Positions 9,583 through 63,766 of a stretch of 64,000 nucleotides of DNA are shown in pieces. Origin of the DNA: an uncultured Eubacteriales bacterium (GTDB lineage: Bacteria > Actinomycetota > Coriobacteriia > Anaerosomatales > CAVRZR01); the NCBI GenBank assembly GCA_964354215.1, contig CAYGYT010000001.1, positions 11,199-75,198 on the forward strand. The letters run 5' to 3'. The position numbers and the translations under genes were made by a program. The notes under the pieces were generated by a model. It made no database searches, was not told the origin of the DNA, and saw only the letters and a list, made by a program, of their open reading frames with translations. The stretch's first letter is position 1, and each line of letters begins with the position of its first letter.

Positions 9583-9584
9583 GA

Positions 9585-10250: not shown

Positions 10251-10252
10251 GC

Positions 10253-11126: not shown

Positions 11127-11276
11127 CTACGACTTGCCGATCTTGTACATCTTCGTGCCACAATCCGGGCACGTGCCCTGAGTCGCCGGGCGACCGTTCT
11201 TCATCGTGATGTCCTGCGCGTCCTGGATCTCCTTCTTGGACTTGCACTTGACGCAGTAGCCTTCCTTGGCTGGCAT
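11127..11276 (-). CDS. Small zinc-ribbon protein (49 aa), DUF5679-like; absent from the ORF track
   Basis: MPAKEGYCVKCKSKKEIQDAQDITMKNGRPATQGTCPDCGTKMYKIGKS with a CxxC...CxxC pattern and a perfect RBS GGAGGTGA 6 nt upstream. Confidence 0.7.
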   Translation of the reverse strand: MPAKEGYCVKCKSKKEIQDAQDITMKNGRPATQGTCPDCGTKMYKIGKS

Positions 11277-11397
11277 GCAGCTTCACCTCCTCGAGTGTGA
11301 GCGTGCGGCACGGCTGTTCGTACAGCCGTACTTCACCTGAACTCCCCTTCAGGACAAGTGAACTCCCAGCAGAAGTGTACTGGTTTTCGCCCACTTG

Positions 11398-18443: not shown

Positions 18444-18515
18444 CCGTCCAGCCCTCGCCTGCGATCGTGTCCACATCCACCAGACCGACCCTACGTGCTC
18501 GCGGGAGCGCTATCC

Positions 18516-27315: not shown

Positions 27316-29178
27316 CTACGCCACCCCCAACAGGCGGGCCATGATGCCGCCGACCACAAACGCGATGCTCACCGACGACGCGAACAACCCGAGCATGTAT
27401 GGCCACCCGCGCTCCTTGAGCACCACCATCGCCGACGCGATGCATGGGACGAAGAGGGTGATCGTGATCATGCCGACGAGGAGCTGTGCGTCGCTCAGGT
27501 TCATGGTGAAGAACCCCGCGGCGCCGAAGTCGCGCCGCACGAATCCCATGACGAATGCCTGAGAGGCCTGCGCGGGCAACCCAAGCCACCCGACCGTGAG
27601 CGGTCGCGCCACCTGGATGATCCACGCAAGCGCCCCCGTGATCTCCAGAAGCGAGATGAGCGCGGCACCCGCGAGGAAGAACAGGGCCACTTCCTTCATG
27701 AACTGGTAGACCTTCACGCCCGTCTTGCGCACGACGTTGTCGAGTCTCGGCACGCGCAGGCTCGGGAGGTCGATGAGCAGGTCGGTGGACGAGCCGGGAA
27801 GCAAGCGGTTGAGCGCGGTGCCGAGCGCAACAAAGATGATGACCAGCGCCGCGAGATAGGCGGCCGCGTAGGCCGCGCCGGTACGGGTCATGAGCGCCGC
27901 GATGACGGCAATCTGCGCCGAACACGGCACGGCGATGGCCATGAGCGCCGTGGCGATGAAGCGCTCGCGCCGGCTCCCGAGGATGCGGGTCGTAAGCGTC
28001 CCCATCGTGACGCACCCGAAGCCGAGAATGAGCGGGATGACCGCGCGCCCGTTCAGGCCAAGCGACGTGAGGGAGCGGTCGGCGAGCGCTGCGATCCGCG
28101 GAAGGTAGCCCGAGTCCTCGAGCAACGCGAGCAGCAGGTAGAATCCGGCCACGAGCGGCAAGATCACGCCGAGCAGATAGGTGGGCGTCATCGTGAGGAT
28201 CCCGAACTCGCCAGCGAGGAGAGTGTAGAGCCACGAGCCAGGCGCGACGATCGAACCGACCACCCGCTCGACGAACGGCACCCAGTACCCGAGCATGATC
28301 GTACCCTCGGTGATGCCGACAAGCCCTCCCGCGATCCACTGGCCGAGCACCACGTACATCCCCCAGAGCAGCGCGAGCAGCATTGGGATGCCCGTGAGCG
28401 GGTTCATCATCGCGTGGGAGAGCCGCGCCGAGAACGAGGCGCCGTGGAGCGTCTCGGTGATGACGTGACCGCAGATGTCGTTTACCCGATGCCGACGCCG
28501 CAGGTAGATAGCGTCCCGGAGTCCGCCGGGCTCCAGTCCGTGTCGCTCGGACACGACCTCGTCGCCTTCGAGGACCATGAGGGCCTCGGCCCGGGTGCCG
28601 ACACGAGACGCCATGAGAACGAGGTCTCGCTCGAGTTCGGGGTCAGCATGTCCGGTTCGCGCCCTCTCGAGGCTGGCCACCAGCTCAGGAATACCCGTTC
28701 CGGCTACGGCGACGGTCTCGATCACCGGTACGCCGAGCAGATCCTCGAGCAGGTCCCGATCGACGCCGACGCCCCGCTTGCTGGCCTCGTCAGCCATGTT
28801 GAGAGCCACGACGAGGGGCTTACCCATGTCGACGAGCTGCAGCGTGAGGAAGAGATCCCGCTCGAGGTGGACCGCATCGACGACGTTGATGACCACATCG
28901 CCGCCGAGGATGATGTCGCGCGCCACGGTCTCCTCGTCGTTGAACGACGAGACGCCGTACACGCCAGGAGTATCGACCACATCTCGGTCGCCAACGCGAC
29001 CACGCGTGAGCTCGACCGTCGTGCCGGGGAAGTTGCTCACGTCGACGTAGGTGCCGGTGAGCGCGTTGAAGACCACCGACTTGCCGACGTTCGGATTGCC
29101 CGCTAGCACCACGGTCTCGATACCGGGGCGCGCCGCAACGGAAGTGGCCCCGTGGTGATGATGGGCGGACGCTGCCAT
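27316..29178 (-). CDS. feoB: Ferrous iron transporter FeoB
   Basis: G-domain GNPNVGKSVVFNALTG...DTPG...NMAD followed by a polytopic membrane domain. Confidence 0.93.
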   Translation of the reverse strand: MAASAHHHHGATSVAARPGIETVVLAGNPNVGKSVVFNALTGTYVDVSNFPGTTVELTRGRVGDRDVVDTPGVYGVSSFNDEETVARDIILGGDVVINVVDAVHLERDLFLTLQLVDMGKPLVVALNMADEASKRGVGVDRDLLEDLLGVPVIETVAVAGTGIPELVASLERARTGHADPELERDLVLMASRVGTRAEALMVLEGDEVVSERHGLEPGGLRDAIYLRRRHRVNDICGHVITETLHGASFSARLSHAMMNPLTGIPMLLALLWGMYVVLGQWIAGGLVGITEGTIMLGYWVPFVERVVGSIVAPGSWLYTLLAGEFGILTMTPTYLLGVILPLVAGFYLLLALLEDSGYLPRIAALADRSLTSLGLNGRAVIPLILGFGCVTMGTLTTRILGSRRERFIATALMAIAVPCSAQIAVIAALMTRTGAAYAAAYLAALVIIFVALGTALNRLLPGSSTDLLIDLPSLRVPRLDNVVRKTGVKVYQFMKEVALFFLAGAALISLLEITGALAWIIQVARPLTVGWLGLPAQASQAFVMGFVRRDFGAAGFFTMNLSDAQLLVGMITITLFVPCIASAMVVLKERGWPYMLGLFASSVSIAFVVGGIMARLLGVA

Positions 29179-29190
29179 GCGGAGGGGTCC

Positions 29191-29541
29191 CTACCGGGCG
29201 GCTAGACGAGCCGGGAGTGCGCGCCTCACGCGAATGCGCTTCGCAAGGCCGCGCCCGACGGCTATCTCTTGACGACCGCTCTTCAGCACGAGCGGGCCGG
29301 CAGGGATGCGGGTGACGCAGGTGACGCACGCTCCTTCGGCCATGCCAAAACGCAGGCACTGGACCCGGGCGTGCTCGTCGTCGACCTCAACGATCTCCAG
29401 CTCGTCGCCGGTCCGTGCCCGGTCGAGCGAGTAGTGCTCGCACGATTCACACTCGAGCGACACCTCGGAGTCAGACAACTCGATGGGCAGCCTGCTGCGC
29501 TCCTCGGTGCCGAGCTTGTTCGGGCTCTTGCTTCCGCCCAC
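29191..29541 (-). CDS. feoA: FeoA-domain protein with Cys-containing N-terminal extension
   Basis: SH3-like FeoA core (GDELEIVEVDD...RFGMAEGACVTCV...LVLKSGRQEIAVGRGLAKRIRV). GTG start with GAGGAG 6 nt upstream. Confidence 0.8.
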   Translation of the reverse strand: MGGSKSPNKLGTEERSRLPIELSDSEVSLECESCEHYSLDRARTGDELEIVEVDDEHARVQCLRFGMAEGACVTCVTRIPAGPLVLKSGRQEIAVGRGLAKRIRVRRALPARLAAR

Positions 29542-29803: not shown

Positions 29804-32521
29804 ATGACCCAGTTGCCGACAACGTCGGGCCCTCCGTGCCACGCGCTCACAGCCGAGGAAACACTGCTGCGACTGGGCTCGGATGCGGCCACCGGCCTGC
29901 CTGCGGTAACCGCGGCGACGCGGCTCGAGGCCTATGGGCTGAATGAGCTTAGACCCGCCGAGCGTACCCCCGCGTGGCGCATGTTCCTGGCGCAGTTCAA
30001 CGACTTCATGATCTGGGTCCTTCTCGGCGCGGTTGCGATCTCCGCGATCGAGGGGCAAGTGCCCGAGGCGATTGCAATCACGGCGATCCTGCTTCTCAAC
30101 GGCGTTCTCGGGTTCGTACAGGAGTACCGGGCCGAGCAGGTGCTCGAGGCGCTCAAGGAGATGTCCGCTCCCACCGCCACGGTCGTGAGAGACGGGCGGG
30201 AGCAGGAGGTCAACGCGTCCGATCTCGTTCCCGGCGATATCGTCCTGCTCGAAGCGGGCGACCGCATCCCTGCCGACGGGCGCATCGTCGAGGCGGCAGC
30301 TCTCCGGACCGAAGAGGCCGCCCTCACCGGTGAGAGCGCCCCCGTCCACAAGACCGCCGCCGAGGTCTGCGAAGCGGGCGCCGATCTGGGCGACCGGGGC
30401 AATTCCGTGTTCGCTGGGACATCGGTAGCCGTTGGCAGAGGTCGGTACGTGGTGACGACTACGGGTGCCGCGACGGAGATGGGGAAGATCGCCCAGCTCC
30501 TATCGGAGCAGACGGAGGAGAAGACGCCGCTGCAAGAGGAGCTGAAGACGGTCGGGAAGCGCATAGCGCTCATCGTCCTGGCCATCGCAGTCATCGTCTT
30601 TGCAGAGGAGGTCTACAAGGCGCTCGCCGAAACGGGGAGCACTCTCTCCGAATCGTGGTCGAGCGGCGCGTTCAGAGATACCCTCACGCTTGCACTGCTC
30701 GTCGCGGTGTCGCTCGCTGTGGCGGCGATTCCCGAGGGGCTACCGGCCATCGTGACGGTCGCCCTCTCGCTCGGCGTGCGGACGATGGCGGGCCACAACG
30801 CGATAGTCCGCAAGTTGCACGCGGTCGAGACGCTCGGCTCGACCACGTTCATTTGCTCCGACAAGACCGGAACGCTCACGCGCAACGAGATGGCGGTGCG
30901 TCGGCTCGTCGTCGGTCTCGATCGCGTCGATGTGCTGCGGGACCACGCCCTTCAGCCCGATGACCGCCGTCCCGCCGATGCCGATCTTCAGCTGCTGCTC
31001 GAAATCGCCGCTGCCTGCAATGACGCGCACTACTCGGCGGATGGGGCGCTTCTCGGCGACCCTACCGAGACCGCCCTCATCGTCGCATCGGACAACATCG
31101 CGACAGAGCGGATGCGACCCCGCCGAGTCGCCGAGGTTCCCTTCGACTCCGAGCGAAAGCGAATGACGACCGTCCATGACGTCGACGGCCGGAGAGTCGC
31201 CTACGTCAAAGGCGGCACAGACGTCGTGCTGGGACTTTGCAGCCATGCGGTGCTGCACGGCGAAGTGGTCGAGATGTCCGCGGACCTCCGCGAGAGCCTG
31301 CACGGGGTGAACGAGCAGCTTGCGTCGAGCGGACACCGCACGCTCGCCTTCGCCATGCGTGAACTCGCCGCGGAAGAGGCCGTCGACGAGGATATCGAGC
31401 GCGGGCTAACGTACGTCGGCATCATGGGCCTGATCGACCCCCCGCGCATCGAAGTGCCTGCCGCCATCGAGGAATGCCACCACGCCGGTATCAAGGTAGC
31501 GATGGTGACCGGCGACCACGCGCTCACCGCGAAGGCGGTCGGGGAGCAGATCGGCCTGCTTGAGGGCGAACGGATACTGACCGGGCGTGAACTCGAGGCT
31601 ATGTCCGACGACGAGCTGTACGACGTCGTCGAGGACGTCCGCATCTACGCCCGGGTCAACCCGGAGCACAAGCTGCGAATCGTCGGCGCGCTCAAGCGCC
31701 GCGGGGAGATCGTCGCGATGACGGGCGACGGCGTGAACGACGCCCCCGCACTCAAGAAGGCGGATATCGGCGTGGCGATGGGGCGCATCGGCACCGACGT
31801 GTCGCGCGAGGCAGCGGACATGGTCCTCGCCGACGACAACTTCGCGACCATCGTCGAGGCGGTGAAGCTGGGCCGTGTTGTGTTCGAGAACCTGCGCAAG
31901 TTCATTCTATTCCTACTGTCGTGCAACATGAGCGAGGTCCTCATCGTCTTCACGACGGCGCTGCTAGCGCCGGTGCCCGCACTGCTGCCGCTGCAGCTCT
32001 TGTGGATCAATCTCGTGACCGACGGCCTGCCGGCACTCGCGCTCGGCGTTGACCCGGGTTCGCCACACGTCATGGATAGACCGCCCCGAGGAGCCGAGGA
32101 ATCCATTCTCACACCGCGGCGTCAGGCCCAGGTGCTGTGGCAAGGAGCGCTTATAACTGTGGGCGCACTGGTCCTGTACCTCGGCGTCGAGGGCGGATGG
32201 GTTCCCGTGGACAGCCCTCGCCACGCCCAGACCATGCTGTTCACGGTCGTAGTGCTCGCACAGCTCCTGCACTCGTTCAGTTTCCGCTCCGAGACGCGCT
32301 CCGTGTTCTCGGCGCACTCCCTCAAGAACCGGTGGCTCAATCTCGCATTCGTAGGGTCGATGTGCCTGCAGATGCTCGTCGTCTACGTGCCGTTCCTGCA
32401 GCGCGTGTTCCACACCGAGCCGCTCGGCCCGGAGGATTGGCTTGCCGTGCTGGTCGCTGCCCTCATTCCGATGGCACTCATCGACTTGACCAAGGTCGCC
32501 CTGGCACGGCGAAGCCGCTAG
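29804..32521 (+). CDS. Cation-transporting P-type ATPase (P2 type, Ca2+/Mn2+-like)
   Basis: TGES, ICSDKTGTLTRNEM, KGGTD and MTGDGVNDAPALKKADIGVAMG motifs, with about 10 TM segments. Confidence 0.92.
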   Translation: MTQLPTTSGPPCHALTAEETLLRLGSDAATGLPAVTAATRLEAYGLNELRPAERTPAWRMFLAQFNDFMIWVLLGAVAISAIEGQVPEAIAITAILLLNGVLGFVQEYRAEQVLEALKEMSAPTATVVRDGREQEVNASDLVPGDIVLLEAGDRIPADGRIVEAAALRTEEAALTGESAPVHKTAAEVCEAGADLGDRGNSVFAGTSVAVGRGRYVVTTTGAATEMGKIAQLLSEQTEEKTPLQEELKTVGKRIALIVLAIAVIVFAEEVYKALAETGSTLSESWSSGAFRDTLTLALLVAVSLAVAAIPEGLPAIVTVALSLGVRTMAGHNAIVRKLHAVETLGSTTFICSDKTGTLTRNEMAVRRLVVGLDRVDVLRDHALQPDDRRPADADLQLLLEIAAACNDAHYSADGALLGDPTETALIVASDNIATERMRPRRVAEVPFDSERKRMTTVHDVDGRRVAYVKGGTDVVLGLCSHAVLHGEVVEMSADLRESLHGVNEQLASSGHRTLAFAMRELAAEEAVDEDIERGLTYVGIMGLIDPPRIEVPAAIEECHHAGIKVAMVTGDHALTAKAVGEQIGLLEGERILTGRELEAMSDDELYDVVEDVRIYARVNPEHKLRIVGALKRRGEIVAMTGDGVNDAPALKKADIGVAMGRIGTDVSREAADMVLADDNFATIVEAVKLGRVVFENLRKFILFLLSCNMSEVLIVFTTALLAPVPALLPLQLLWINLVTDGLPALALGVDPGSPHVMDRPPRGAEESILTPRRQAQVLWQGALITVGALVLYLGVEGGWVPVDSPRHAQTMLFTVVVLAQLLHSFSFRSETRSVFSAHSLKNRWLNLAFVGSMCLQMLVVYVPFLQRVFHTEPLGPEDWLAVLVAALIPMALIDLTKVALARRSR

Positions 32522-35178: not shown

Positions 35179-36570
35179 ATGGACGACGTGAACCCCGAGT
35201 TTGATTCCGCGCCGGACTCACAGGCGCCGTCAGTGCCCGCAGCGCCCGCTCCCGACGCCTACGGCGCACCACAGGCCGAACCAGTGCCGCCGGCGCAGAG
35301 CGAGGAGCAGGCGGCCAGCCCTGCCTACGCCGAACCCGCGATGTACTCGCCGCCCGTCCAAACGGGGGCGGCCGCGCCTGTTCCTGCAGCGGCTCCACGC
35401 TCGGGGGTGGGAGCGGCGATAGCCGTGGCCATAGTGGTCGCGCTGTTCGTCGGCGCGATGGCGGGTGCCGCCGCCGGATTCGCAGGCGCCCAGCTCGCTC
35501 GTGGCAATGCGCTCCTTCGGCCTGCCAAAGTGACGGTCGTCCCTTCGAAGACCTCCGAGCCGGTCGTTGCGGCGGCTGCGGCGGCTGTTCCGAGCGTCGT
35601 GAACATCGACGTGAGCGGATCGGCTGAGTCCCAGTCGCAGAACGACAGGAACCTGCCTAGGGACCACCCGAACGTTCCGTTGAGAGGGAACGGCTCCGGA
35701 GTGGCCTACAAGGCGGCACCTGATGGCGGCACCTACATCATCACGAACAACCACGTGGTCGAGAACGCCACGAGCATCGTGGTCCGCGACGCTGCCGGGG
35801 CTCGACACGACGCGAAGCTCGTCGGCCGTGACCCGGAGACCGATATCGCCGTCGTACGGGTGTCGGGCAAGGTGCCGGGAATCCAGCTCGGTGACTCGAA
35901 TGGTGTTCAGGTCGGCCAGCTAGTCGTCGCCATCGGCTCCCCGTTCGGGCTCGAGCACTCGGTCACGTCCGGCGTGGTCTCCGCGCTCGGGCGATCGCTG
36001 CCGGACTTCACTGGCAGCTCAAACGGGGTGTATCCGCTTGTGAACGTAATCCAGACCGACGCAGCCATCAACCCGGGCAATTCCGGTGGAGCCTTGGTCG
36101 ATCGCACTGGGCGTCTTGTGGGCATCAATACCGCCATCTATTCCGAGAGCGGCGCCAGCGGCGGAGTCGGTTTCGCCATTCCGGTAGACACGGCGCAGCG
36201 CGTGGCCGAAGAGCTCATCCGCGGCGGCAAGGTCCAGCACCCGTTCCTCGGTGTGGTGGGCCAGACAGTAGACGATCAGCTCGCCAAGGAAGAGAAGCTC
36301 AACGTGAGCGAGGGCGCCTTCGTTGTCGATCTGACACCCGGCACGAACGCCGTGAAGGCCGGCATCAAGAAGGGCGACGTGATCGTCTCGCTTGAGGAGA
36401 CGCCCATCCGCTCGATGGACGATCTCATCCTTCAGGTGCGCAGGCGCGACGTCGGCGATACGGTCTCCGTCGGGCTCGTGCGAGACGGCGAGAAGATGAC
36501 TGTAGACATGACGGTCGGGTCCAAGCCGGCGAACCTAGACACGAGCCAGCCGACAACCAGCACGCCGTAG
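35179..36570 (+). CDS. htrA: HtrA/DegP-family serine protease with PDZ domain
   Basis: Catalytic triad context (TNNHVV, DIAV, NPGNSGGALVD) plus a C-terminal PDZ domain. N-terminal Pro/Ala-rich region and TM helix. Confidence 0.9.
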   Translation: MDDVNPEFDSAPDSQAPSVPAAPAPDAYGAPQAEPVPPAQSEEQAASPAYAEPAMYSPPVQTGAAAPVPAAAPRSGVGAAIAVAIVVALFVGAMAGAAAGFAGAQLARGNALLRPAKVTVVPSKTSEPVVAAAAAAVPSVVNIDVSGSAESQSQNDRNLPRDHPNVPLRGNGSGVAYKAAPDGGTYIITNNHVVENATSIVVRDAAGARHDAKLVGRDPETDIAVVRVSGKVPGIQLGDSNGVQVGQLVVAIGSPFGLEHSVTSGVVSALGRSLPDFTGSSNGVYPLVNVIQTDAAINPGNSGGALVDRTGRLVGINTAIYSESGASGGVGFAIPVDTAQRVAEELIRGGKVQHPFLGVVGQTVDDQLAKEEKLNVSEGAFVVDLTPGTNAVKAGIKKGDVIVSLEETPIRSMDDLILQVRRRDVGDTVSVGLVRDGEKMTVDMTVGSKPANLDTSQPTTSTP

Positions 36571-36610
36571 CCCCGCAGGAATCCAGACACGCAGCGGTGC
36601 CGCGGGGGCG

Positions 36611-37966
36611 CTATGCCTTCTTGCGGCGCGAGCGCAAGAAGGCGACGAGCCCGATCACGAGAGCGCCGAGAACTGCAACGGCCAAGACGGCCGGCAGCGC
36701 GCTGTTCCACTTCTCGGTCGCAGAATCGGACGTCTTTTCGCCTTCAACGGGCGCCGCTGAAGACCGCACGACCTGCTCGGCTGTGGCCATCTGGGTGGTT
36801 GGGTTCTCGACCTCGGCCTTCTCGGCAAGTTCCTCAGGCAGCGAGCGGTAGTTGAGGGTCGCAACGATCGTGGCCGAGGGCTGGTCGGGCATCGTGATGG
36901 TGTAGGTCTGGGTAACGGACGCCTGGGGCGGGATCCTGTCATCGGAGTGGACGCCGGTGGCCTCCCAGAGCTCCACCGGGTGCCGCCCCTTGTCGTCCTT
37001 CAGCACGGTTCCGAACTGGCGGGTACCGAGCGCCGTCTCCTTGCCGTCCGGCCCTGCTGCGGTCACGTCCAGCCACATCTGGCGCACCTCGGTAAGCCCG
37101 GTGGGCAAGTAGTGTCCCGCGCCCACGTTGGTGATCGTCACGGTCACCAACGCCGAGGCGCCCGGGGCAAGGATCTCCGGGGCATCGAGGCGCATCTCGG
37201 CTGCAGCCTTGAGGTTTGCGGTCGCGCGCTCCGCGTCACCCTGGCCCACGTTGCCCCCCACGAAGGTCATCGTGTAGATGTGCTCGCGCTGAGGGCCGCC
37301 TGCTGCGGCCTTGCCGGGATTGGGCTTCGTCACGCCGGGGCCCGGGGTCATGTGGCAGTCCTGGCAGACGACTCCAGCCTTCGCGTACGGGCCGTTCTTC
37401 CATTCTGAGTACGAGGACTCGAGGTGCATGCCGTTCACGGGATGGTCGACGTTGTGGCACGCGCCGCAGAACTCAGCCGACTCGTGGAACGCCGAGTAGG
37501 CGGTCGCGTGGACCGGAGAGACGGCGTCTTTGAGCTGGGCCCTCTTGGTTCCATCGAGTTTCAGGATCTGCGAGGTGTTGGACGGCGGCATAGTAGTACC
37601 TACCACTTGATGACAGAAGTCGCAGAAGACGCCCTGCGCCGATTGAGGAGAGAGCTTGCCGGTCGCGGCCTCTCCCGACATCACGGCCACGGGACCGTGG
37701 CAGGTGTCGCAGAATGCGCCCAGCTTCCCGTCGGTGGCCTTGTTCGCCTCGGCCTTCTTGGCCTGGTACGCCGGGTCGGCGAGTGCCTTGGCGTGCATCG
37801 TGACACTCCACTGGCTCAACAGTCCCGCGTGACAGCCGCAGGCCTCAGCGGGCTTGAAGGCCCTGGACGGCGCGTTTGGTAGTGCGCCAGCCCCCTGGAC
37901 CGCGCTCAGACAACCGATCAGAACAACCGCACTCGCTATGCACAGCTGAAACCGAATCGGCCTCAT
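36611..37966 (-). CDS. Multihaem c-type cytochrome, signal peptide plus C-terminal TM anchor (4 CxxCH and 1 CxCH)
   Basis: ACGCH (37829-37840), CDTCH, CDFCH, CGACH and CQDCH. C-terminal LPAVLAVAVLGALVIGLVAFLRSRRKK. Start set at MRPIRF (37966). Confidence 0.85.
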   Translation of the reverse strand: MRPIRFQLCIASAVVLIGCLSAVQGAGALPNAPSRAFKPAEACGCHAGLLSQWSVTMHAKALADPAYQAKKAEANKATDGKLGAFCDTCHGPVAVMSGEAATGKLSPQSAQGVFCDFCHQVVGTTMPPSNTSQILKLDGTKRAQLKDAVSPVHATAYSAFHESAEFCGACHNVDHPVNGMHLESSYSEWKNGPYAKAGVVCQDCHMTPGPGVTKPNPGKAAAGGPQREHIYTMTFVGGNVGQGDAERATANLKAAAEMRLDAPEILAPGASALVTVTITNVGAGHYLPTGLTEVRQMWLDVTAAGPDGKETALGTRQFGTVLKDDKGRHPVELWEATGVHSDDRIPPQASVTQTYTITMPDQPSATIVATLNYRSLPEELAEKAEVENPTTQMATAEQVVRSSAAPVEGEKTSDSATEKWNSALPAVLAVAVLGALVIGLVAFLRSRRKKA

Positions 37967-38190
37967 GTCTGTGCCAGACGAGGCACGCTCGGTGATTCCG
38001 ATCTTCTCAGACGCCGTCGTAGTGCGCGCACGGCACCAGCGCGCGAAGGGTATGACTGTCACCGTCCGTCCTTTCCGAACGCGGACCCGATGTCACTCAT
38101 GGTACACGGTGCGCAAATCCGCAGGAAGGGCGCTTGCCTCGCCGCAAACTCCGGGTTCACGCCCGCCCCGACCACGTCATCCGCTGACGG

Positions 38191-40113
38191 CTAGGGGGGT
38201 GCCAACCAGACGTCGAAGGCCAGGTCGCCGGAGAGTGGAAGAGCCAATCGCGCACGTCCGTCCTCGTTCGTCGCGGGGAGGGCCGCGTCCGAGGCGGTCA
38301 GTCGCGCATTCACGCGCGATATCCTCCAACCAGGTGGAGGCGCGACCGTGACCGTCATGGGGATGTCCTCGAGGTCCGCTTGTCTCGCGACGAAGAGCCG
38401 GTAGGACGGGGCGGCGCTCGGCGCCCGTGGCGAGCCCTCTCCGTTCGGGACGGACGACGAAGGATCGCCGGTGGCACCGCCGGTTCTCCACGCGACGGGG
38501 ACGTGGCTGACCACCGTCTCCGTGTGGGTCCGTCCTCGAAGGACCGAGAACGAGCGGCCCTCGGTCGGGAGCCCGGACTCAACGGTGCCGTGGCCTCCGC
38601 CGTCCGACGCGAACACCGTGCCCGGTGCCCGGGAGACGCGCAGCCAGTCGTCGAAGGAGTTGCGCCCGGCCAGCGCATAGGGCCCCCTGTTCGAGTACCC
38701 GAGGACAAGCGTCGACTCCGCCGAGCGGTCGGGCATGAGAGCGACCTCGTAGTCGATGGTCTTCTTCATGGCCATGTTGATCTTGCTGCCGAGGTTCATC
38801 GCGTTGGAGATGACGAGGAGATCCGTTGCGCCGCCAGACGGAGCGATCCGCCCCGACCACCCCAGAGCGACGACCGCCTCCTCCGCTCCGGGATCCGTGA
38901 AGTAGAGCTGCACGTGCTTGGCGTCGGCGGCCTTCGCCAGGGCCTGCGCTGCCTTGGCCAGTTCCCCCGGGCTAGCGCCGAGCACCCGCCGCTCGAGTTC
39001 CCCAGCGAGTGCAACGAGTACGTCCTTCCTGCCCTCGCCCCCCTTCACCATCGTGTAGTACAGCAGACGAGTGAGCAGGTTCTCGGGCGTGAACGTCTCG
39101 GAGAAGCTCTGCACCCCTATCGGGCCGAGAGCCTCCAAGAGGTACTGCATCGCGACCGTGTCCACGACGACGACGCCGTCGATCGGAGGTTGATCGTAGT
39201 CCCGCCAGAACCCGAGCATAGCGCGCGCACTCGTGGGGAAGTCGATCCACCAGTTCGCTTCTCGGAGTCCGAACTCGCTGGTCAGGGCTGCTTTGGGAGG
39301 TCGCGTGAAACCATCAGGCACGTAGGGCATCAGGAAGACGTCCCGATAGGGCGGGTCCGGCAGCGTGTAGATGTCTCGCCACTTGTCGAGTCTGACACCC
39401 GTCGGACCCACCTCGATGATGCCGTAGCTGCCGGAGAACCCCCCCGTGGGTCTCAGTTCCGCGCCGTTCTGGGAGACGACCAGGATTCGGTGCGTGGACG
39501 ACAGCAGGTACCTCTCCAGCGGCAACAGAGCGCGGAATCGGTCCAGGGACGGGGCGGCGCGTCGGAGTGCAGCCTTGGCCGAACGGACCTGCTTGGTCAG
39601 TGGCGGCACCAGACCGCGCTCGTCCAGGGCCGCGACCCGGTCGGCCACGTCGACGAGCGCGGCGAGTGCGGTTTCGACGCGCCGGCGTCTGTTCTCGAGC
39701 AACGAGCTGAGGCCGCTCGTCGGGCTTGCTCCCGCTCTATTGGCGGGCACCTGCTGAAGTGCCGCCGCCAACTCGGCGCCGGCGGTCGAGGCGCGCAGCC
39801 CGAGCACCACGAGCGCCTGCGCCGTGGAATACTGACGCCCAACCAGAGGGACCGCGCCCACCGCTTCGCCGAGCCAGTCGGGCCCGAGCATCCCTTGTGC
39901 GCGAGAGAAGCTCCGCTTGGCGGCGCCGAATTGCGACACCGCTCCGGTCGCATCGAGAGACGCGAGACGTGTGGCAGCGGCCGCGGCCTCGGCCTTCCCC
40001 TTCTTCGCCACGCTCGCGAGACCGGCTGCCCACCCGTATGCCCCCGCCACGAGCACGATCACGAGCGCGGCAACGGCGGTCACGATGATGGCCGAGCGGA
40101 TCGGACGCTTCAT
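38191..40113 (-). CDS. DUF4012-domain single-pass membrane protein
   Basis: N-terminal TM AIIVTAVAALVIVLVAGAYGW. The ILVVSQNGAELRPTGGFSGSYGIIEV block is typical of DUF4012. Confidence 0.7.
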   Translation of the reverse strand: MKRPIRSAIIVTAVAALVIVLVAGAYGWAAGLASVAKKGKAEAAAAATRLASLDATGAVSQFGAAKRSFSRAQGMLGPDWLGEAVGAVPLVGRQYSTAQALVVLGLRASTAGAELAAALQQVPANRAGASPTSGLSSLLENRRRRVETALAALVDVADRVAALDERGLVPPLTKQVRSAKAALRRAAPSLDRFRALLPLERYLLSSTHRILVVSQNGAELRPTGGFSGSYGIIEVGPTGVRLDKWRDIYTLPDPPYRDVFLMPYVPDGFTRPPKAALTSEFGLREANWWIDFPTSARAMLGFWRDYDQPPIDGVVVVDTVAMQYLLEALGPIGVQSFSETFTPENLLTRLLYYTMVKGGEGRKDVLVALAGELERRVLGASPGELAKAAQALAKAADAKHVQLYFTDPGAEEAVVALGWSGRIAPSGGATDLLVISNAMNLGSKINMAMKKTIDYEVALMPDRSAESTLVLGYSNRGPYALAGRNSFDDWLRVSRAPGTVFASDGGGHGTVESGLPTEGRSFSVLRGRTHTETVVSHVPVAWRTGGATGDPSSSVPNGEGSPRAPSAAPSYRLFVARQADLEDIPMTVTVAPPPGWRISRVNARLTASDAALPATNEDGRARLALPLSGDLAFDVWLAPP

Positions 40114-40242
40114 GTTCCTAGGGTACAGCCGCCTGCTCCTCGTCGCGCTCATCCGCTCGACACCGGGAGCCCCTGACACCGCGGGAGCGACGCCGGGGGC
40201 AGAAGAGCTAGGCGCCCCCGCACCCTGGATGACAGCGGGACA

Positions 40243-41673
40243 CTACCTCGTGCGGTCACCGCCGAAGTACTCGGGGACCGTCCGCACCTTCCTGCGGCGT
40301 CGACGCCGGACAAGGGCGAAGACGACTCCCGCAACAATCAACGCGCCGAGCAGCGCCGCGGCTCCTGCAAGCAGCTGCGAGGTGCTCACGCTCGCTCCGC
40401 GCTCGGCCCGACGTTTCGCCTGTTTCGACCCGTAGACCACCTTCTGAGCGCGTGCCATCTCGGTCACGGGGTTCTCGACTCGCGCCTTCTTTGCCATCTC
40501 CTCCGGGAACGACTTGTAGTTCAGGACTGCTTCTACCGCTACGCCGCCCTCGGTTGTCATCGGGAACGCATACGTGGAGTGCACGGCGTTCTTGGGCGGG
40601 ATTCGGTCGTCTGACTGAACAGCCACCGCGTCCCAGAGCTGGACGGGGTAGCGTCCCTCGGCGTCTCGGTACACCGTCCCGAACTGACGACGGCCCAGCA
40701 GTCGCTTCGCCCCATCGGGAGAGACCGCGTTCACCTCGAGCCACATCTGGCGGATCTCCGCGACTCCCGCCGGGATGTAGTGTCCGGCCCCGACGTTCGC
40801 GACGGTGACCTTCACCGATCCGGTCGTTCCGGGCTCGACCACGTCGGACGCCTCGAGCGAGACCCGTGCGGCAGCTTTGAGGTTCATGCGCGCCCGGGGG
40901 GCGTTGCCCAGGGGCACGTTCGCGCCGACGAAGTTCATGAGGTAGACGAAGTTCCGGATCGGTCCCATGGGGGCGGCCCGGCCAACGGTCGGCCCTCCGC
41001 CTGGCCGAGCGCTCATGTGGCAGTCCTGACACACAATGCCGAGGGCCGCGTAGGGCCCCGCTTTCCACTCGGGGTAGGTCGTGTCGAGCATGACCCCCGT
41101 GGTGGGGTGCTTGAGTGTATGGCACGCGCCACAGAACTCCGCGCTCGTGTGGAACTTGGAGAAGGCGTTCTTGTGAGTCGGCGCCGACGAATCGGGGTAC
41201 TGGGCTCGCTTCGTGCCGTTGGCCCGCAGCTTCTGAGAGGCGTTTCGTATCGGCTTCTTCGTGCCGGTGACCTGGTGGCAGAAGTCGCAGGTCACTCCCT
41301 CCTTGCTCTGAGGAGAGAGCTTCGACTCGCCTTTCGTCTGCCCCGCCATAGTTCCGATAGGCGTGTGGCAGGTGTCGCAGAACGTACCGAGGCTCCCGCC
41401 CGTGGCTTTGTTGGCCTCTTGCTTCTTGACCACGTACACGGGGTCGTAGAGAGCCTTCGCGTGCATCGACAGAGCCCATTCGTCACGCTGCTGCCCATGG
41501 CACGTGCAGGAGGTGGCGGGCTGGAAGCGTTTCGCAGGGATGTCTGGCAGCGCCTCGGCCTGCTGCGGCAGCATGCAGAGGAGTACCGAGGCGATCGCAC
41601 ACGCGGAGACGACCGCGCCGGCTCGAATCGCTCGCAGAGTGGGGCGGGGAGGTGTGCTGGTGGTTCGTGCCAT
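40243..41673 (-). CDS. Multihaem c-type cytochrome, paralogue of 36611-37966 (4 CxxCH and 1 CxCH, C-terminal anchor)
   Basis: SCTCH (41497-41508), CDTCH, CDFCH, CGACH and CQDCH. C-terminal LLAGAAALLGALIVAGVVFALVRRRRRRK. GGAGG RBS before ATG 41673. Confidence 0.85.
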   Translation of the reverse strand: MARTTSTPPRPTLRAIRAGAVVSACAIASVLLCMLPQQAEALPDIPAKRFQPATSCTCHGQQRDEWALSMHAKALYDPVYVVKKQEANKATGGSLGTFCDTCHTPIGTMAGQTKGESKLSPQSKEGVTCDFCHQVTGTKKPIRNASQKLRANGTKRAQYPDSSAPTHKNAFSKFHTSAEFCGACHTLKHPTTGVMLDTTYPEWKAGPYAALGIVCQDCHMSARPGGGPTVGRAAPMGPIRNFVYLMNFVGANVPLGNAPRARMNLKAAARVSLEASDVVEPGTTGSVKVTVANVGAGHYIPAGVAEIRQMWLEVNAVSPDGAKRLLGRRQFGTVYRDAEGRYPVQLWDAVAVQSDDRIPPKNAVHSTYAFPMTTEGGVAVEAVLNYKSFPEEMAKKARVENPVTEMARAQKVVYGSKQAKRRAERGASVSTSQLLAGAAALLGALIVAGVVFALVRRRRRRKVRTVPEYFGGDRTR

Positions 41674-41750
41674 CCGTCGCCTCCAAGCGCCGGTCGCCCG
41701 TTTGCCCCACAAACAGGCTACCTGAAGTCCACCCCGTCGTCCTACTGCAC

Positions 41751-41780
41751 GAAGACCCCAGCGGTACCGCCGGGGTCTTC
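41751..41780 (-). terminator. Strong hairpin between the small anchored protein gene and cytochrome paralogue 2 (no clear U-tract)
   Basis: gaagacccc / ggggtcttc 9-bp stem with a 12-nt loop. Confidence 0.35.
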
Positions 41781-41806
41781 GGATTCTCGACTCGGGCTGA
41801 GAGACG

Positions 41807-42127
41807 TCAGGCAGGGGCTCCGGTCTTTCGGCTGGCCAGAACACCCCAGACGACGATCGCGACGATCGCGACGAGCGACGAGACTGCCCAAAACAGGTTC
41901 AGCAGGTCGCCCTCCTTGCTCCACGGCGTCGTGGCCTTCGCCTCGGCCGCAGTCGCGTCGGGCGGAGCCTCGGGCAACACGATGAGCGGGGCCACGACCA
42001 CGACTTTCTTCGCAGCCGTGGTGGCCGCGGTCGTCGTGGGCGTGGCCGTAGCGGCAAACCCTGCTGCAGGCAGCGTGAAGGTCAGGAGCACGAGCAGGCA
42101 CGCGAGTGTGAGCAGTACGCGCTTCAT
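41807..42127 (-). CDS. Small secreted protein with Thr/Ala-rich spacer and C-terminal TM anchor
   Basis: Signal peptide MKRVLLTLACLLVLLTFTLPAAGFA, C-terminal LFWAVSSLVAIVAIVVWGVLA, and GGAGGT RBS. Confidence 0.65.
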   Translation of the reverse strand: MKRVLLTLACLLVLLTFTLPAAGFAATATPTTTAATTAAKKVVVVAPLIVLPEAPPDATAAEAKATTPWSKEGDLLNLFWAVSSLVAIVAIVVWGVLASRKTGAPA

Positions 42128-42317: not shown

Positions 42318-42827
42318 ATGGTTGAGATGTATCGCTGCAAGGGGTGTGGGTACTTCCATGTCGGACCGGCCCCGGACACGTGTCCCGTGTGCGGCGCGTC
42401 GAAGGGCATGTTCGTCGAATACGCGGGACCCGGCGACCTGACGGGCACGAAGACGCTCGAGAACCTCAAGGCCGCGTTCGCGGGCGAGTCGCAGGCAAAT
42501 CGCCGCTACACGATGTTCAAGCGCGTGGCGGAGCTCGAGCGCGCGCCAGCCTCGGCGATCTCCGCGTTCGAACGGGCAGGCAGCGAGGAGACAGCGCATG
42601 CGCTTGGCCACCTCGCCTACATGGGAGCGGTCGGCACGACGGCCGACAATCTCCGCGCCGCGGCAGCCGGTGAGGAGTACGAGACGGTCGACATGTATCC
42701 GTCCTTCGCCGAGACCGCCGAGGCCGAGGGGCATCCCGAGATCGCCTACTACTTCCGGGCCGTCGGACGTTTCGAGAACGAGCATCGCAAGGAGTACGTC
42801 GGCGCACTGGGGGAGCTTGAGTCGTAG
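42318..42827 (+). CDS. rbr: Reverse rubrerythrin (N-terminal rubredoxin-like CxxC...CxxC, C-terminal diiron ferritin-like domain)
   Basis: YRCKGCGYFH...CPVCGASK, then ESQANRRY...EETAHALGHL...GEEYE...ENEHRKE diiron ligand pattern. Confidence 0.88.
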   Translation: MVEMYRCKGCGYFHVGPAPDTCPVCGASKGMFVEYAGPGDLTGTKTLENLKAAFAGESQANRRYTMFKRVAELERAPASAISAFERAGSEETAHALGHLAYMGAVGTTADNLRAAAAGEEYETVDMYPSFAETAEAEGHPEIAYYFRAVGRFENEHRKEYVGALGELES

Positions 42828-50248: not shown

Positions 50249-50545
50249 TCAGGAGGGGTGTGCCTCGGTGTAGCGCTGGACCCCTTCGCGCAGCTCCCGC
50301 ACCTTGCGCCACGCGACTTCCTCGTCGCGACCGAGATAGTGATCGACCTTCCCGCCGAGCGCCTCGGCAGCCTGCTCAGCTCGGTCCGCGAGGCCTCGGG
50401 CTAGGTCGGCCGCACGTTGCGCTTCGTCGACGATGCGCCGCCTCGTCTTTGCCCCCGAAGCAGGCGCGAACAGCAGCCCGATCACGATGCCCAAGACGGC
50501 GCCCGTGATAAGTCCGATCACGAAGAGTGCCAGATTTTTCCTCAT
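50249..50545 (-). CDS. YtxH-domain small membrane-associated protein
   Basis: N-terminal helix LALFVIGLITGAVLGIVIGLLFAPASG followed by a charged helical region. The ATG overlaps the parB stop (ATGA). Confidence 0.7.
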   Translation of the reverse strand: MRKNLALFVIGLITGAVLGIVIGLLFAPASGAKTRRRIVDEAQRAADLARGLADRAEQAAEALGGKVDHYLGRDEEVAWRKVRELREGVQRYTEAHPS

Positions 50546-51420
50546 GACTCTACCTCCTGCGCTCCCCGCGGTTCGTCGTCCTCCGTGATGAGGCGGTAGA
50601 TTCGCTCCAAGTCCTCTTCACCATGAAACTCGATCTCAATCTTGCCCTTGTTCTGCGCCAGACGCACTCGCACGTTCGTTCCCAGCATCCGCCGCAGCCT
50701 CCGAGCCACGAGCTTGAAGGACTTCGGTGCGACTGGTCGTGGAGCGCGCTCCACCTGCCCAGCGGCAATGAGTCGCGAAAGGTTCTCGGTCTCGCGGACC
50801 GACAACCCGTCGTCCACAACACGCTGGGCAAGTCGGAGTCGGGCGTTCTCGTCCGGAACCGACAGTACCGCTCGGGCGTGGCCGGCGCTCATCTTCCCTT
50901 GATACACAAGATCCTGGACTTCTTCCGGGAGGTCGAGCAGGCGGAGAGCGTTCGTTATGGCGGACCGGGACTTGGAGACCTTGTCTGCGAGCTCAGCTTG
51001 GGTCATCTGGTGCTCTGCAAGGAGCCGCCTGTACCCGCGAGCCTCTTCTATCGCATTCAGGTCCTCGCGTTGCAGATTCTCGATGAGCGCCAGTTCCAGC
51101 GCTTCGACCTCGGTCGTCGTGAGGACGCGAACTGGAACCTTGTCGAGGGCTGCGACCCGAGCGGCTCTCCATCGGCGCTCGCCGGCGATGATCTGATAGC
51201 CGTCGCCTAGCGGTCGAACGATAATCGGCTGCAGCACACCCACCTTGCGAATCGAGTCGGCGAGCTCGGCGATCGCCTCTTCGTGCATGTCGGTTCGCGG
51301 CTGCAATGGATTCGGGGACATCATGTCAAGCGCCAGTTCCATGGGTTCGCCGGTCTGCGATTCCTGTGCTGCGTTCGGGATGAGCGCCGAAAGCCCGCGC
51401 CCGAGGCCTCGCTTAGACAC
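50542..51420 (-). CDS. parB: Chromosome partitioning protein ParB (Spo0J)
   Basis: GLGRGLSALIP, IAGERRWRAA and HTH QAELADKVSKSRSAITNALRLL. Confidence 0.93.
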   Translation of the reverse strand: MSKRGLGRGLSALIPNAAQESQTGEPMELALDMMSPNPLQPRTDMHEEAIAELADSIRKVGVLQPIIVRPLGDGYQIIAGERRWRAARVAALDKVPVRVLTTTEVEALELALIENLQREDLNAIEEARGYRRLLAEHQMTQAELADKVSKSRSAITNALRLLDLPEEVQDLVYQGKMSAGHARAVLSVPDENARLRLAQRVVDDGLSVRETENLSRLIAAGQVERAPRPVAPKSFKLVARRLRRMLGTNVRVRLAQNKGKIEIEFHGEEDLERIYRLITEDDEPRGAQEVES

Positions 51421-52204
51421 GATCGATCACTTCCTTCGAGAGCCGCTTGTAGGCGTCCGCTCCCTTGCCTGACGGGTCGTAGAGTGTTACCGGTTGGCCG
51501 AAGCTCGGCGCCTCCGAGAGACGGACTGTCCGGGGAATCAGCGTCTTGAAGACCTTCTCCCCAAAGAAGTCCCGCACCTCTTCGACTACTTGCTGAGCCA
51601 AGCGAGTGCGAGAATCGTACATCGTCATGACGACGCCGAAGACTTCGAGATCCGGATTCAGGTGGGTCTTGACCAACCTGACGCTATCGAGAAGCTTCGA
51701 CAGTCCCTCCAGGGCATAGTACTCGCACTGGATTGGAATCAAGAGACTATCCGCCGCGGTGAGAGCATTCACGGTCAGCAGGCCAAGAGAGGGAGGGCAG
51801 TCGATGATGACGATGTCGAACTCCCCGACGACTGGTTCGAGGATGGACTTGAGTCGGCTTTCGCGACTGAAAGCTGAGACTAGCTCGATTTCGGCGCCGG
51901 CGAGCTGAATCGTGGCCGGAACCACGAAGACCCCTTCGATCTGCACTGGCTCGATGATCGTTTCCAGACCGATCTCGCCAAGCAGCGCGTTGTAGACGCA
52001 GAGCTCGCGCTGGTTCTTGTTCAATCCGAATCCGGATGTGGCGTTGCCCTGCGGGTCAAGATCGACAAGCAGCACGCGCTGTTCGAGCTCGCCAAGGCCG
52101 GCTGCGAGGTTAACGGCAGTGGTGCTCTTGCCAACCCCGCCCTTCTGATTCACGACCGCCATAACCAGGGGCGGGCCGTGCTCTGTCTCCGAATGGATGC
52201 TCAT
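51413..52204 (-). CDS. parA: Chromosome partitioning ATPase ParA (Soj)
   Basis: Deviant Walker A NQKGGVGKSTTAVNL. Start set at ATG 52204 with GGAGGGG upstream. Confidence 0.93.
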   Translation of the reverse strand: MSIHSETEHGPPLVMAVVNQKGGVGKSTTAVNLAAGLGELEQRVLLVDLDPQGNATSGFGLNKNQRELCVYNALLGEIGLETIIEPVQIEGVFVVPATIQLAGAEIELVSAFSRESRLKSILEPVVGEFDIVIIDCPPSLGLLTVNALTAADSLLIPIQCEYYALEGLSKLLDSVRLVKTHLNPDLEVFGVVMTMYDSRTRLAQQVVEEVRDFFGEKVFKTLIPRTVRLSEAPSFGQPVTLYDPSGKGADAYKRLSKEVIDRV

Positions 52205-52272
52205 CCAGTACCCCTCCACATTCTAGGACGGCGAGGTCGCATTATACGCGAGCTACCCGAACGCACAAACCC

Positions 52273-57238: not shown

Positions 57239-57274
57239 GCTCGCGTGCGCACTGACTCTGCTGAGGGGATTGAC

Positions 57275-58669
57275 ATGTCCGACGTGAACGTGATCTGGGA
57301 CGGCGTCTTGGATGTCGTGCGCGGCGAGCTGACCACGCCCGTCTTCAAGACGTGGTTCGAGCACGCCCGCCCCGTCTCTCTCGACACCGATGGCGTGTTC
57401 GTCATCGGTGTGCAGAACGAGTTCGCGCGCGAGTGGTTCGAGTCGAGGTACTCGAGCCTCATCCGATCGGCGGTCAGCCAGGTCACCGGCGAGGGTATGG
57501 ATATTCGCGTCGTCATCGACCGAGAGGCGGCGGAATCCGCCGTGTCATCCGTGTCGACATCCGACGTCGAGGTGGAGTCCATTGCCCGCGATCTCGAAGC
57601 GAATGAGGAGAAGCGCCTGCAAGAGGCGTCAGCCGGCGACTTCGGCCCGAAGTACACGTTCGACACGTTCGTCACCGGGGAATCGAACCGCTTCGCGTGT
57701 ACCGCCGCCCTCGCCGTCGCTGAGGCACCGGGGCTTTCCTACAACCCGCTCTTCATCTACGGGGGGGCGGGGCTGGGGAAGACACACTTGCTTCAGGCGA
57801 TCGGGCACTACGTTCGCAAGAACTACTCACACAAGAAGGTCGTGTACGTGTCTACGGAGCAGTTCACGAACGACTTCATCAACTCCATACGCGACCGAGA
57901 CTCGAATCGCATCGACGGCTTCAGGCAGCGCTACCGGAACTCCGACGTCCTCCTCGTCGACGACGTTCAGTTCCTGAAGGGCAAGGAGGGTATCCAAGAG
58001 GAGTTCTTCCATACCTTCAACGCCCTGCAGCAGCACGGGAAGGCGGTCGTGCTGTCGTCCGACCGGCCTCCCAAAGACATCGCGACCCTCGAGGACCGGC
58101 TTCGGAGTCGCTTCTCGATGGGCCTCATTACCGACATCCAGCCGCCCGACCTCGAGACGCGCATCGCTATTCTTCGGCGTAAGGTTGATACCGAACGCCT
58201 GGTAGTCCCGGACGACGTGCTCGAGTACACCGCCGGGCGTGTGTCTTCGAACGTCAGAGAGCTCGAGGGGGCCCTTACTCGAATAGCCGCGTATGGATCA
58301 CTGTCCCGGCATCCGGTCGATCTGGAGCTCGCCAAGACGGTGCTTCAGGACGCGTTCCCTGAGCGCTCGACCCGGCCGATCGCCGTGTCCACCATTCAAC
58401 GAGAGGTCTGCAAGTACTATTCGATCAGCCACTCGGAACTCGTCGGGAGCAAGCGCTCCCAAAACATCGTCTATCCTCGGCAGATCGCCATGTACCTAGC
58501 CAGGGAACTCACTGACATGTCGCTACCAAAGATCGGGGATGAATTCGGTGGAAGGGACCACACCACCGTCATGCACGCGACCGCGAAAATCCAGAAGCTC
58601 ATGAATGCCCAGCGGGAGGTCTACAACCAGATACAATCCCTCACCAACACGATCCGGCAACAAACCTGA
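57275..58669 (+). CDS. dnaA: Chromosomal replication initiator DnaA
   Basis: [13 protein letters not shown]..., AAA+ Walker [23 protein letters not shown], and domain [10 protein letters not shown]. Start set at ATG 57275 with GAGGGG upstream. Confidence 0.95.
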
Positions 58670-58900
58670 TGTCACTGCCTGTTGACAAGGGTGTTGGCAA
58701 CAGGTGGTTCACCTGTGGGCCTGTTCGGCCACTTTGTGGGAAACGCCTCCGCGCTGTGGGTCCTGGGGATACTCTCGTGTCCTTCTCCACACGCAGCTCG
58801 AACGGACACGCCCGCTGCCACCTGCGTTCTTGGTGACCTTCCACATGCGCACAGGACCTAGTACTGAGACGGATAGTCATAGATATGAAAGGAACACTAG

Positions 58901-59998: not shown

Positions 59999-60011
59999 CA
60001 GAGACCAGAGG

Positions 60012-61720: not shown

Positions 61721-61770
61721 GCTGGGGGAACAAGGGGCCGAAGGAGACCACACACCCCCATCTGTTGTGT

Positions 61771-63766
<1,996 letters not shown>

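Follow-up and report, generated by a model that had tools for sequence, protein, structure and literature searches.

A predicted membrane-anchored family of pentahaem cytochromes in Coriobacteriia carries a conserved CxCH motif at its first haem site

Haem attachment in c-type cytochromes takes place almost universally at a CxxCH motif; longer spacers are known, some of which need dedicated lyases. For the contracted motif CxCH there is, to our knowledge, a single biochemical precedent, and the motif is generally treated as an oddity. The precedent is KsTH (Kuste2854), a tetrahaem cytochrome of Kuenenia stuttgartiensis, in which CKCH is a functional haem-binding motif according to the passages of two papers that cite Ferousi et al. 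2019 (PMC7096707, PMC8388095). Here we analyze a locus in which CxCH occurs in two genes. It lies in the 64-kb stretch of DNA shown above (the window, about 66% G+C), where two minus-strand genes, called here cytA and cytB, encode related multihaem cytochromes. A preliminary description, made from the letters of this DNA alone, had named the Kuenenia protein as the only characterized case of CxCH, which agrees with the literature we found. As far as the citing passages describe it, KsTH is like cytA and cytB in having CxCH inside a multihaem c-type cytochrome that also bears canonical motifs. It is unlike them in having four haems, in being soluble and in serving hydrazine synthase as redox partner, in a planctomycete. 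Compared with KsTH, CxCH is here fixed over hundreds of sequences in an Actinomycetota lineage, the middle residue being chiefly Gly.

Two pentahaem cytochromes of known structure are related to cytA and cytB. The low-potential cytochrome c552 (LPC) of Thermochromatium tepidum (PDB entry 5ZE8) has the five haem motifs in the same order, a C-terminal immunoglobulin-like (Ig-like) domain and an H..PTG loop, and its first motif is followed, as in cytA and cytB, by W..SMHAK. It differs by a canonical CANCH at haem 1 and by having Cys in place of His in the stretch that joins the haem-4 motif to the haem-5 motif; overall identity is 21%, and the protein is soluble, periplasmic, from a Gram-negative phototroph, and devoid of a C-terminal membrane anchor. 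The second relative is MccSep, the product of extKL (GSU2937-2936) in Geobacter sulfurreducens (PDB entry 9WT8), a periplasmic polysulfide reductase composed of a five-haem cap and an Ig-like stem (PMC13510729). Its haem 1 is solvent-exposed and is the proposed electron entry point; its haem 2 forms the active site, ligated by His and Cys239, and Sec325, carried by the peptide VEMTNHAGHSIPDGU, reaches in from the Ig-like domain (PMC13510729). The cap-plus-stem organization and the number of haems are shared with cytA and cytB, and the family can be aligned with MccSep at the haem-1 motif followed by W..S.H and at the AGH..P.G loop. The differences are a CIECH at haem 1, the catalytic haem 2 with Cys239, for which the family offers no Cys, and Sec325, where it has Leu291. 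MccSep is moreover a soluble periplasmic tetramer, in contrast to the predicted membrane-tethered cytA and cytB.

Extracytoplasmic multihaem cytochromes of monoderm cells are also found at the surface of Gram-positive metal reducers, such as OcwA of Thermincola and the multihaem proteins of Anaerosoma and Parvivirga (PMC9686372). Neither OcwA nor MtrA gave a significant sequence or fold match to cytA or cytB. Unlike these surface cytochromes, the cytochrome gene studied here stands alone, in a block of housekeeping genes near the origin. In culture, members of the order Anaerosomatales use Fe(III), sulfur or thiosulfate for respiration, with H2 or formate; their genomes code for 17-18 multihaem cytochromes, and no quinones were detected in these organisms (PMC9686372).

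The two cytochromes are clearly paralogous, as the preliminary description had proposed: they share 53% identity over 408 amino acids (BLASTP, E 1e-159). Each contains exactly four CxxCH and, in addition, one CxCH, also as described. Translation of the exact coordinates yields EACGCHAGLLSQWSVTMHAK with CGCH for cytA and TSCTCHGQQRDEWALSMHAK with CTCH for cytB; the cytA peptide spanning the two cysteines of the motif, Cys43 and Cys45, is ACGCHAGLLSQWSVTMHAK. They are the only multihaem open reading frames (ORFs) of the window, in which no other ORF has at least two CxxCH. The Pfam family Cytochrome_C554 (PF13435) matches the N-terminal part of both and just exceeds its threshold (25.7 bits for residues 45-119 of cytA and 29.9 bits for cytB; cut-off 20.8). 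Public gene calls differ for cytA: the JGI/ENA call has 451 amino acids, and the NCBI call (395 amino acids) starts at Met57, without the signal peptide and the CxCH (window 37796-37966). Four other homologues share this Met57-type short call. Pipelines counting CxxCH alone score four haems in these proteins, and at least one public annotation omits the CxCH entirely.

The contracted site was located on the solved structures as follows. An AlphaFold model of cytA, built on an alignment of 96 sequences, has a pLDDT of 90.4 and a pTM of 0.83. It comprises an N-terminal helix (residues 3-25), which we take as the signal peptide, a helical domain with the five motifs, a beta-sandwich (about residues 256-401), a disordered stretch (415-422) and a C-terminal helix (423-450). 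With Foldseek the only full-length match of this model in the PDB is 5ZE8 (E 1.8e-17, TM score 0.70, 440 columns); the other matches are Ig-like or CARDB domains and concern only the C-terminal half. A family profile run against PDB sequences finds 5ZE8 with E 3.4e-17 and 9WT8 with E 4.1e-8. The five haem motifs align in conserved order with those of LPC/MccSep-type cytochromes, the first being CxCH and not CxxCH. This CxCH falls opposite CANCH of 5ZE8 and CIECH of MccSep, all of them followed by W..S(M/I)HA, and the contracted site is therefore haem 1.

We then considered how widely the contraction is conserved. A search of 5.8 billion proteins with cytA gave 1114 relatives at E<=0.001 among the scored candidates. 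The top 120 include 115 full-length proteins, every one of which has CxCH as first site (chiefly CGCH, but also CTCH, CACH and CLCH); the five others are gene calls starting at the internal Met57. In the 96-sequence alignment, whose mean column identity is 54%, C43, C45, H46, W53, M57 and H58 are invariant and position 44 is variable. A scan of one genome per GTDB species gave 527 relatives, of which the best 80 loci were examined, nearly all of them from uncultured metagenome-assembled genomes of Coriobacteriia/Actinomycetota. They contain 86 cytochrome ORFs. Three have no N-terminal site (two are cut by contig ends and one has a disrupted 5' region), and two come from outgroup phyla, with CGRCH in a Chloroflexota record and CGGCH in another Actinomycetota record. 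CxCH is present in 80 of the 81 remaining ORFs, x being G, T, A, S, V, L, I, Y, Q or R; with the two window genes this makes 82 of 83 N-terminally complete Coriobacteriia-type cytochrome ORFs. The exception is an orthologue with a canonical CNGCH, located in the same rubrerythrin/HtrA/Ddl block of a Coriobacteriia chromosome (locus L082, 9884-11491, OY968780.1); it offers a natural reference against which to compare the contracted site. In the subclade of cytB, x is T, I, V, N or E, and both Cys and the His are kept. Judged by these alignments, conservation of the motif is far beyond chance.

The first site was also compared across the wider family. An exhaustive HMMER search with cytB of 1.84 billion representatives of 50%-identity clusters gave 3143 relatives. 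The best 150 were inspected, the homologous first site being recognized by the W..S.H that follows it. This site could be scored in 119 representatives and is CxxCH in 106 of them, CxCH in 10, which are the closest ones, and Cx3CH in 3. The question raised by the preliminary description, whether CxCH replaces CxxCH in one clade only, is thus answered by a canonical site in most representatives and a contracted one, invariant there, in the closest group. One and the same haem-1 pocket is seen with one-, two- and three-residue spacers across the superfamily. The three distant cytB relatives with the expanded site read CKEKCH, CQEKCH and CKDNCH (P0167, P0171 and P0228). Neighbour-joining trees conflict on the placement of the CNGCH lineage (P0126/L082), which is sister to the CxCH group in one tree and nested within it in the other; bootstrap support reaches 69% when P0126 is grouped with CxCH, against 22% for a group of CxCH sequences only. 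Strict monophyly of CxCH was dropped on account of this conflict and of the 22% value, and a single origin of the contraction is likely. After KsTH, this would be the second family in which CxCH is conserved, and much the larger of the two. A CxCH-bearing family in Actinomycetota, or spacer-length variation at one homologous haem site, was not found described in the literature searched, in which subscription papers are thinly covered. Among bioinformatic pipelines, one already includes CXCH in its count of haem motifs.

Conservation of the two Cys and the His around a drifting middle residue is expected of a working haem-attachment site rather than of decay or of a single thioether. It is on this point that another explanation of the motif has to be weighed, in which CxCH holds no normal haem: haem 1 would be lost, leaving a metal site or a redox-active dithiol, or would be attached by a single thioether. 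A one-residue spacer is sterically demanding, experimental proof of a haem at CxCH concerns one protein only as far as the citing passages go, and the window revealed no gene for a dedicated haem lyase; ResB, CcsA and CcdA are all missing among the 34 window ORFs scanned with Pfam, the four proteins of the locus included. The invariance of Cys, Cys and His beside a variable x is however unlike neutral decay, and unlike a single thioether, which would leave the first Cys free. The rest of the haem-1 signature (W53, S/T56, H58) is invariant too, the region is modelled confidently (block pLDDT 87), and the Cx3CH found at the same site in another clade suggests a structurally permissive haem pocket. 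We consider the absence of a normal haem at this site quite unlikely.

The residues available for axial ligation were compared with those of MccSep. His58, His153, His285 and column 233 are nearly universal across the wider family. His285 belongs to the (A)GH..P.G loop and is shared by all representatives (124 of 124) and all close homologues (96 of 96). In the profile alignment AGHSIPDGU of MccSep, which reads AGHSIPDGX in the 9WT8 sequence, corresponds to AGHYLPTGL, so that the position of Sec325 is that of Leu291: it is occupied by Leu in 94 and by Val in 2 of the 96 close homologues, never by Sec or Cys. The segment NPTQCC, which holds Cys239, aligns with the Cys-free NGMHLE, and His175, four residues past the haem-4 motif, is invariant. 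His181 had been a candidate equivalent of Cys239; its column is variable (His in 74 of 96) and it was rejected as a ligand. Column 233 is Met in 96 of 96 close homologues, and His in 103 and Met in 21 of the representatives. Met is also found there in three CxxCH outgroups, which suggests that a ligand switch from His to Met at this column predates the contraction of the motif. One haem would then have gone from His/His to His/Met ligation in the CxCH clade, and all five haems are probably six-coordinate. As for the catalytic apparatus of MccSep, these alignments point to its having been lost, or never present, in the family.

These residues bear directly on whether the proteins could be enzymes, either a reductase of sulfur or selenium species like MccSep, or a reductase detoxifying peroxide or oxygen together with the neighbouring rubrerythrin. 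The closest characterized homologue is a polysulfide reductase, and reduction of sulfur and thiosulfate is known from a cultured member of the order (PMC9686372). Rubrerythrin is the conserved divergent neighbour, adjoining the cytochrome in about 60 of the 80 loci. The clade-specific Met233 could in addition give rise to a high-potential His/Met haem such as dihaem peroxidases contain. Several observations stand against catalysis: the position of Sec325 is Leu almost throughout, and the family lacks an equivalent of Cys239 and keeps His175 without exception. The ExtKL multihaem selenoprotein model is the best NCBIfam match of both proteins (NF040886; E 1.5e-13 and 9.7e-16), but its scores of 50.1 and 57.4 bits are far under the cut-off of 250 bits. 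No conserved regulatory motif was found between rubrerythrin and cytochrome genes, a k-mer survey of 59 such intergenic regions for a shared operator having given only words resembling ribosome-binding sites. The synteny also spans housekeeping genes and may be purely vertical. An enzymatic function is therefore regarded as unlikely. With no haem-ligating Cys, no Sec or Cys in the loop and a full set of conserved His/Met candidates, an electron carrier in the wall space is likelier than an enzyme, and on these sequence grounds a role in electron transfer is more likely than catalysis.

The ends of the proteins indicate how such a carrier would be held. In about 130 homologues the C-terminal 60 residues consist of a low-complexity linker rich in acidic residues, Gly, Ser and Ala, then about 20 hydrophobic residues and 2-6 Arg/Lys, with no conserved C-terminal sorting motif. 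Sortase-type signals were rejected for the window proteins: the LPXTG_anchor, Microco_LAVTG and GG_III-CTERM models are under their cut-offs for cytB and have no match in cytA. The C-terminal hydrophobic helix followed by an Arg/Lys cluster reported in the preliminary description is thus real; the term "tail-anchored" used there is strictly wrong, as these are C-terminally anchored proteins of type I with a signal peptide. Signal peptide, C-terminal helix and basic tail together predict a type-I orientation, with the haem domain on a flexible tether. In a monoderm cell this would place the haem domain on the outside of the cytoplasmic membrane.

The reading that we hold to be probable is that of a vertically inherited Coriobacteriia family of pentahaem cytochromes which bind haem 1 through CxCH and act as membrane-tethered electron carriers or relays, not as enzymes. 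The family would belong to uncultured and recently cultured Coriobacteriia of the OPB41/Anaerosomatales type. Computation shows the architecture, the homology to LPC and MccSep, the contraction at haem 1 with its strict conservation, the missing catalytic residues of MccSep and the stand-alone, origin-proximal position in the core genome. We infer that the protein is exported by its Sec signal peptide and that its five haems are loaded at the outer face of the membrane by the System II machinery of Gram-positive bacteria, CxCH included, by analogy with Kuste2854 of Kuenenia. It would remain tethered by the acidic and Gly-rich linker, one C-terminal transmembrane helix and a cytoplasmic Arg/Lys cluster. 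The solvent-exposed entry haem would be the one attached via CxCH, by a one-codon difference fixed in the lineage and kept through speciation and gene duplication. If MccSep is a guide, the haem chain would be ordered 1-3-4, with haems 2 and 5 branching from it. A membrane-tethered relay would fit the physiology of Anaerosomatales, if the cultured strains carry the gene. What appears to be new is thus a membrane-anchored, non-catalytic branch of the LPC/MccSep fold with a CxCH entry haem, fold and motif each being already known.

Some points weigh against this reading. The haem at CxCH is deduced for this family, and the AlphaFold model holds no haems; its biochemical reality would depend on the one precedent of KsTH, which is known through secondary citations (PMC7096707, PMC8388095). 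There are six conserved His/Met candidates (H58, H153, H161, H175, M233 and H285) for five haems, so that the assignment of ligands is not unique and an open coordination site is possible. In none of the loci analyzed for synteny (83 in all, the 80 genome loci and three further cytochrome loci, with flanks of 8-10 kb) is a redox partner linked to the cytochrome. Finally, the conservation of rubrerythrin and HtrA could reflect vertical inheritance alone.

The neighbourhood of the cytochrome gene is itself conserved. About 60 of the 80 genome loci share a block composed of AddA, RlmN and a divergent rubrerythrin on one side of the cytochrome, and of a convergent HtrA, a membrane protein and Ddl on the other. 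The window has the same block, to which genes for FeoAB, a P-type ATPase and a histidine kinase are added. No further multihaem ORF is present in the 10-kb flanks of the 80 loci, and no other cytochrome, quinol dehydrogenase or haem-maturation gene is linked to the cytochrome. There is usually one cytochrome per locus; in 8 of 80, two are directly adjacent. These tandem CxCH cytochromes lie between rubrerythrin and HtrA, at about 8400-11300 of loci L035, L038, L039, L049, L053, L061, L063 and L073. The tandem copies form subclades of their own and were therefore duplicated independently of the cytA/cytB pair. A cluster of two multihaem cytochromes and a rubrerythrin reported from Anaerosomatales (PMC9686372) resembles this tandem form.

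In the window, transcription on the minus strand proceeds from a small ORF of 106 amino acids to cytB, a DUF4012 gene and cytA. The preliminary description had taken these four genes as an envelope electron-transfer module. The genes are co-directional, with short gaps and no strong hairpin between cytB, the DUF4012 gene and cytA, and the small ORF accompanies cytB-type genes in the two closest relatives (L085 and L086). In these relatives, whose flanking proteins are 66-88% identical to those of the window, the order is rubrerythrin, a small ORF (52-54% identity), one cytB-type cytochrome (61-64%) and HtrA. Their single syntenic cytB-type gene identifies cytB as the resident gene. The DUF4012 gene and cytA are found between cytB and htrA only in the window genome, and the nearest relative of cytA (67%) has another context, beside an FKBP isomerase and gatA. 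The small ORF begins with a signal-like sequence and ends with a hydrophobic stretch and basic residues, as described earlier; it is upstream of cytB only, not of the pair. It belongs to no Pfam or NCBIfam family and has no match at E<1e-5 in the 80 genome loci, a single chance-level one (E 0.97, L017) appearing at E<1.

The gene between the cytochromes does encode a DUF4012 protein (PF13196, 75.4 bits for a cut-off of 28), and its distribution decides against the module. A DUF4012 homologue is found within 8-10 kb of a cytochrome in 0 of 83 loci (tblastn of the 80 loci, even at E<1), and conversely no cytochrome lies near DUF4012 in 7 DUF4012 loci. Its 83% orthologue is placed between gatB and gatA/gatC, and its 77% orthologue has a deaminase gene and a glycosidase-like gene as neighbours. 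Of four homologues examined at 53-57% identity, three are in polysaccharide-biosynthesis clusters, with glycosyltransferases, acetyltransferases, a DegT aminotransferase, a Bac_transf sugar transferase and a polysaccharide deacetylase around them, and one is among unrelated metabolic genes. An unrelated role of DUF4012, which had been named beforehand as evidence against the module, is what these clusters suggest. Most genomes moreover have a single cytochrome, and the small ORF is absent from the 80 loci. A four-gene module is thus very improbable, and on the synteny it is already largely refuted. DUF4012 is, by this comparison, a neighbour brought in by local rearrangement and not part of a conserved unit; the rearrangement would be specific to the window genome and cytA would probably have arrived with it.

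The tethered, CxCH-bearing electron carrier can be read more widely, though only tentatively, as a possibility that we rather doubt. An order-level lineage of Coriobacteriia would have fixed CxCH for the entry haem of a core cytochrome together with the switch from His to Met, retuning the geometry and the potential of the chain, which might make the protein a central extracytoplasmic electron hub. The hub would then serve organisms in which respiratory quinones were not detected (PMC9686372), and an ordinary System II haem lyase, or an undescribed specialized paralogue, would routinely mature CxCH. With hundreds of sequences, one pocket, spacers of one to three residues according to clade and two solved homologues (5ZE8 and 9WT8), the family constitutes a natural experiment. 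It makes testable how a lyase handles a one-residue spacer and how the contraction affects haem geometry and potential. As a conserved core gene of a widespread subsurface lineage with Fe(III) and sulfur reducers, it also bears on electron transfer in monoderm envelopes.

The features of the locus are collected in Table 1.

Table 1. Position of the cytochrome genes, their main sites and the neighbouring features in the window
Feature	Position	Strand	Description	Basis
cytA	36611..37966	-	451-amino-acid pentahaem cytochrome: signal peptide, haem cap, Ig-like domain, linker, C-terminal transmembrane helix, RSRRKKA	ORF, Pfam, AlphaFold, Foldseek
cytA contracted haem-1 motif	37829..37840	-	C43-G-C45-H46	Translation; alignments to 5ZE8 and MccSep
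cytB	40243..41673	-	476-amino-acid paralogue of cytA, same architecture; resident orthologue of the sub-lineage	Identity and synteny
cytB contracted haem-1 motif	41497..41508	-	C56-T-C58-H59	Translation
cytA loop	37094..37123	-	G282-AGHYLPTG-L291, in the Ig-like domain	Profile alignment to 9WT8, column counts
cytA Met233 codon	37268..37270	-	Putative distal haem ligand, His to Met	Column counts
cytA C-terminal anchor	36614..36700	-	Hydrophobic helix and basic tail (predicted membrane anchor)	Model helix 423-450
cytB C-terminal anchor	40288..40377	-	Hydrophobic helix and RRRRRRK cluster	Sequence
Small ORF	41807..42127	-	106-amino-acid protein, predicted secreted and C-terminally anchored, upstream of cytB	ORF
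DUF4012 gene	38191..40113	-	Single-pass protein, 640 amino acids	PF13196
Rubrerythrin gene	42318..42827	+	Divergent conserved neighbour	Pfam
htrA	35179..36570	+	HtrA-type serine protease, convergent conserved neighbour	Trypsin_2 and PDZ on orthologous loci; synteny
Hairpin I2	41750..41781	.	Inverted repeat between small ORF and cytB, 16-nucleotide arms, 94% complementary, without T-run	
Hairpin I1	36606..36652	.	Inverted repeat over the 3' end of cytA, facing convergent htrA, 20-nucleotide arms	

The two hairpins are the only strong ones of the locus. The upstream one, I2, may act as a terminator or attenuator separating the small ORF from cytB, and cytB, the DUF4012 gene and cytA may be co-transcribed in the window genome. 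A scan for sigma-70 and terminator consensus sequences gave nothing exceeding shuffled expectation.

The host belongs to the Actinomycetota, as first described, and more precisely to the class Coriobacteriia. Several of the loci L018, L025, L026, L033, L057, L067-L069 and L073 are labelled "uncultured Eubacteriales bacterium". Such labels are probably wrong, most of these records carrying the Coriobacteriia-type block with flanking proteins 60-75% identical. The window also contains dnaA, dnaN, recF, gyrB, parAB and dnaB and is thus an origin-proximal part of the chromosome, dnaA being about 15-20 kb from the cytochrome locus. These replication-origin genes are found at 50542-52219 (parB/parA), 57245-63766 (dnaA, dnaN, recF, gyrB) and 1312-2841 (dnaB). 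The feoA/feoB genes and the P-type cation ATPase (27316-29541 and 29804-32521) are only a few genes away from the cytochromes, an arrangement also present in L085 and L086. Further away, a protein of the YgbA_NO family (nitrous-oxide-stimulated promoter) and a Crp/Fnr-type regulator are encoded divergently at 17964-18476 and 18594-19304.

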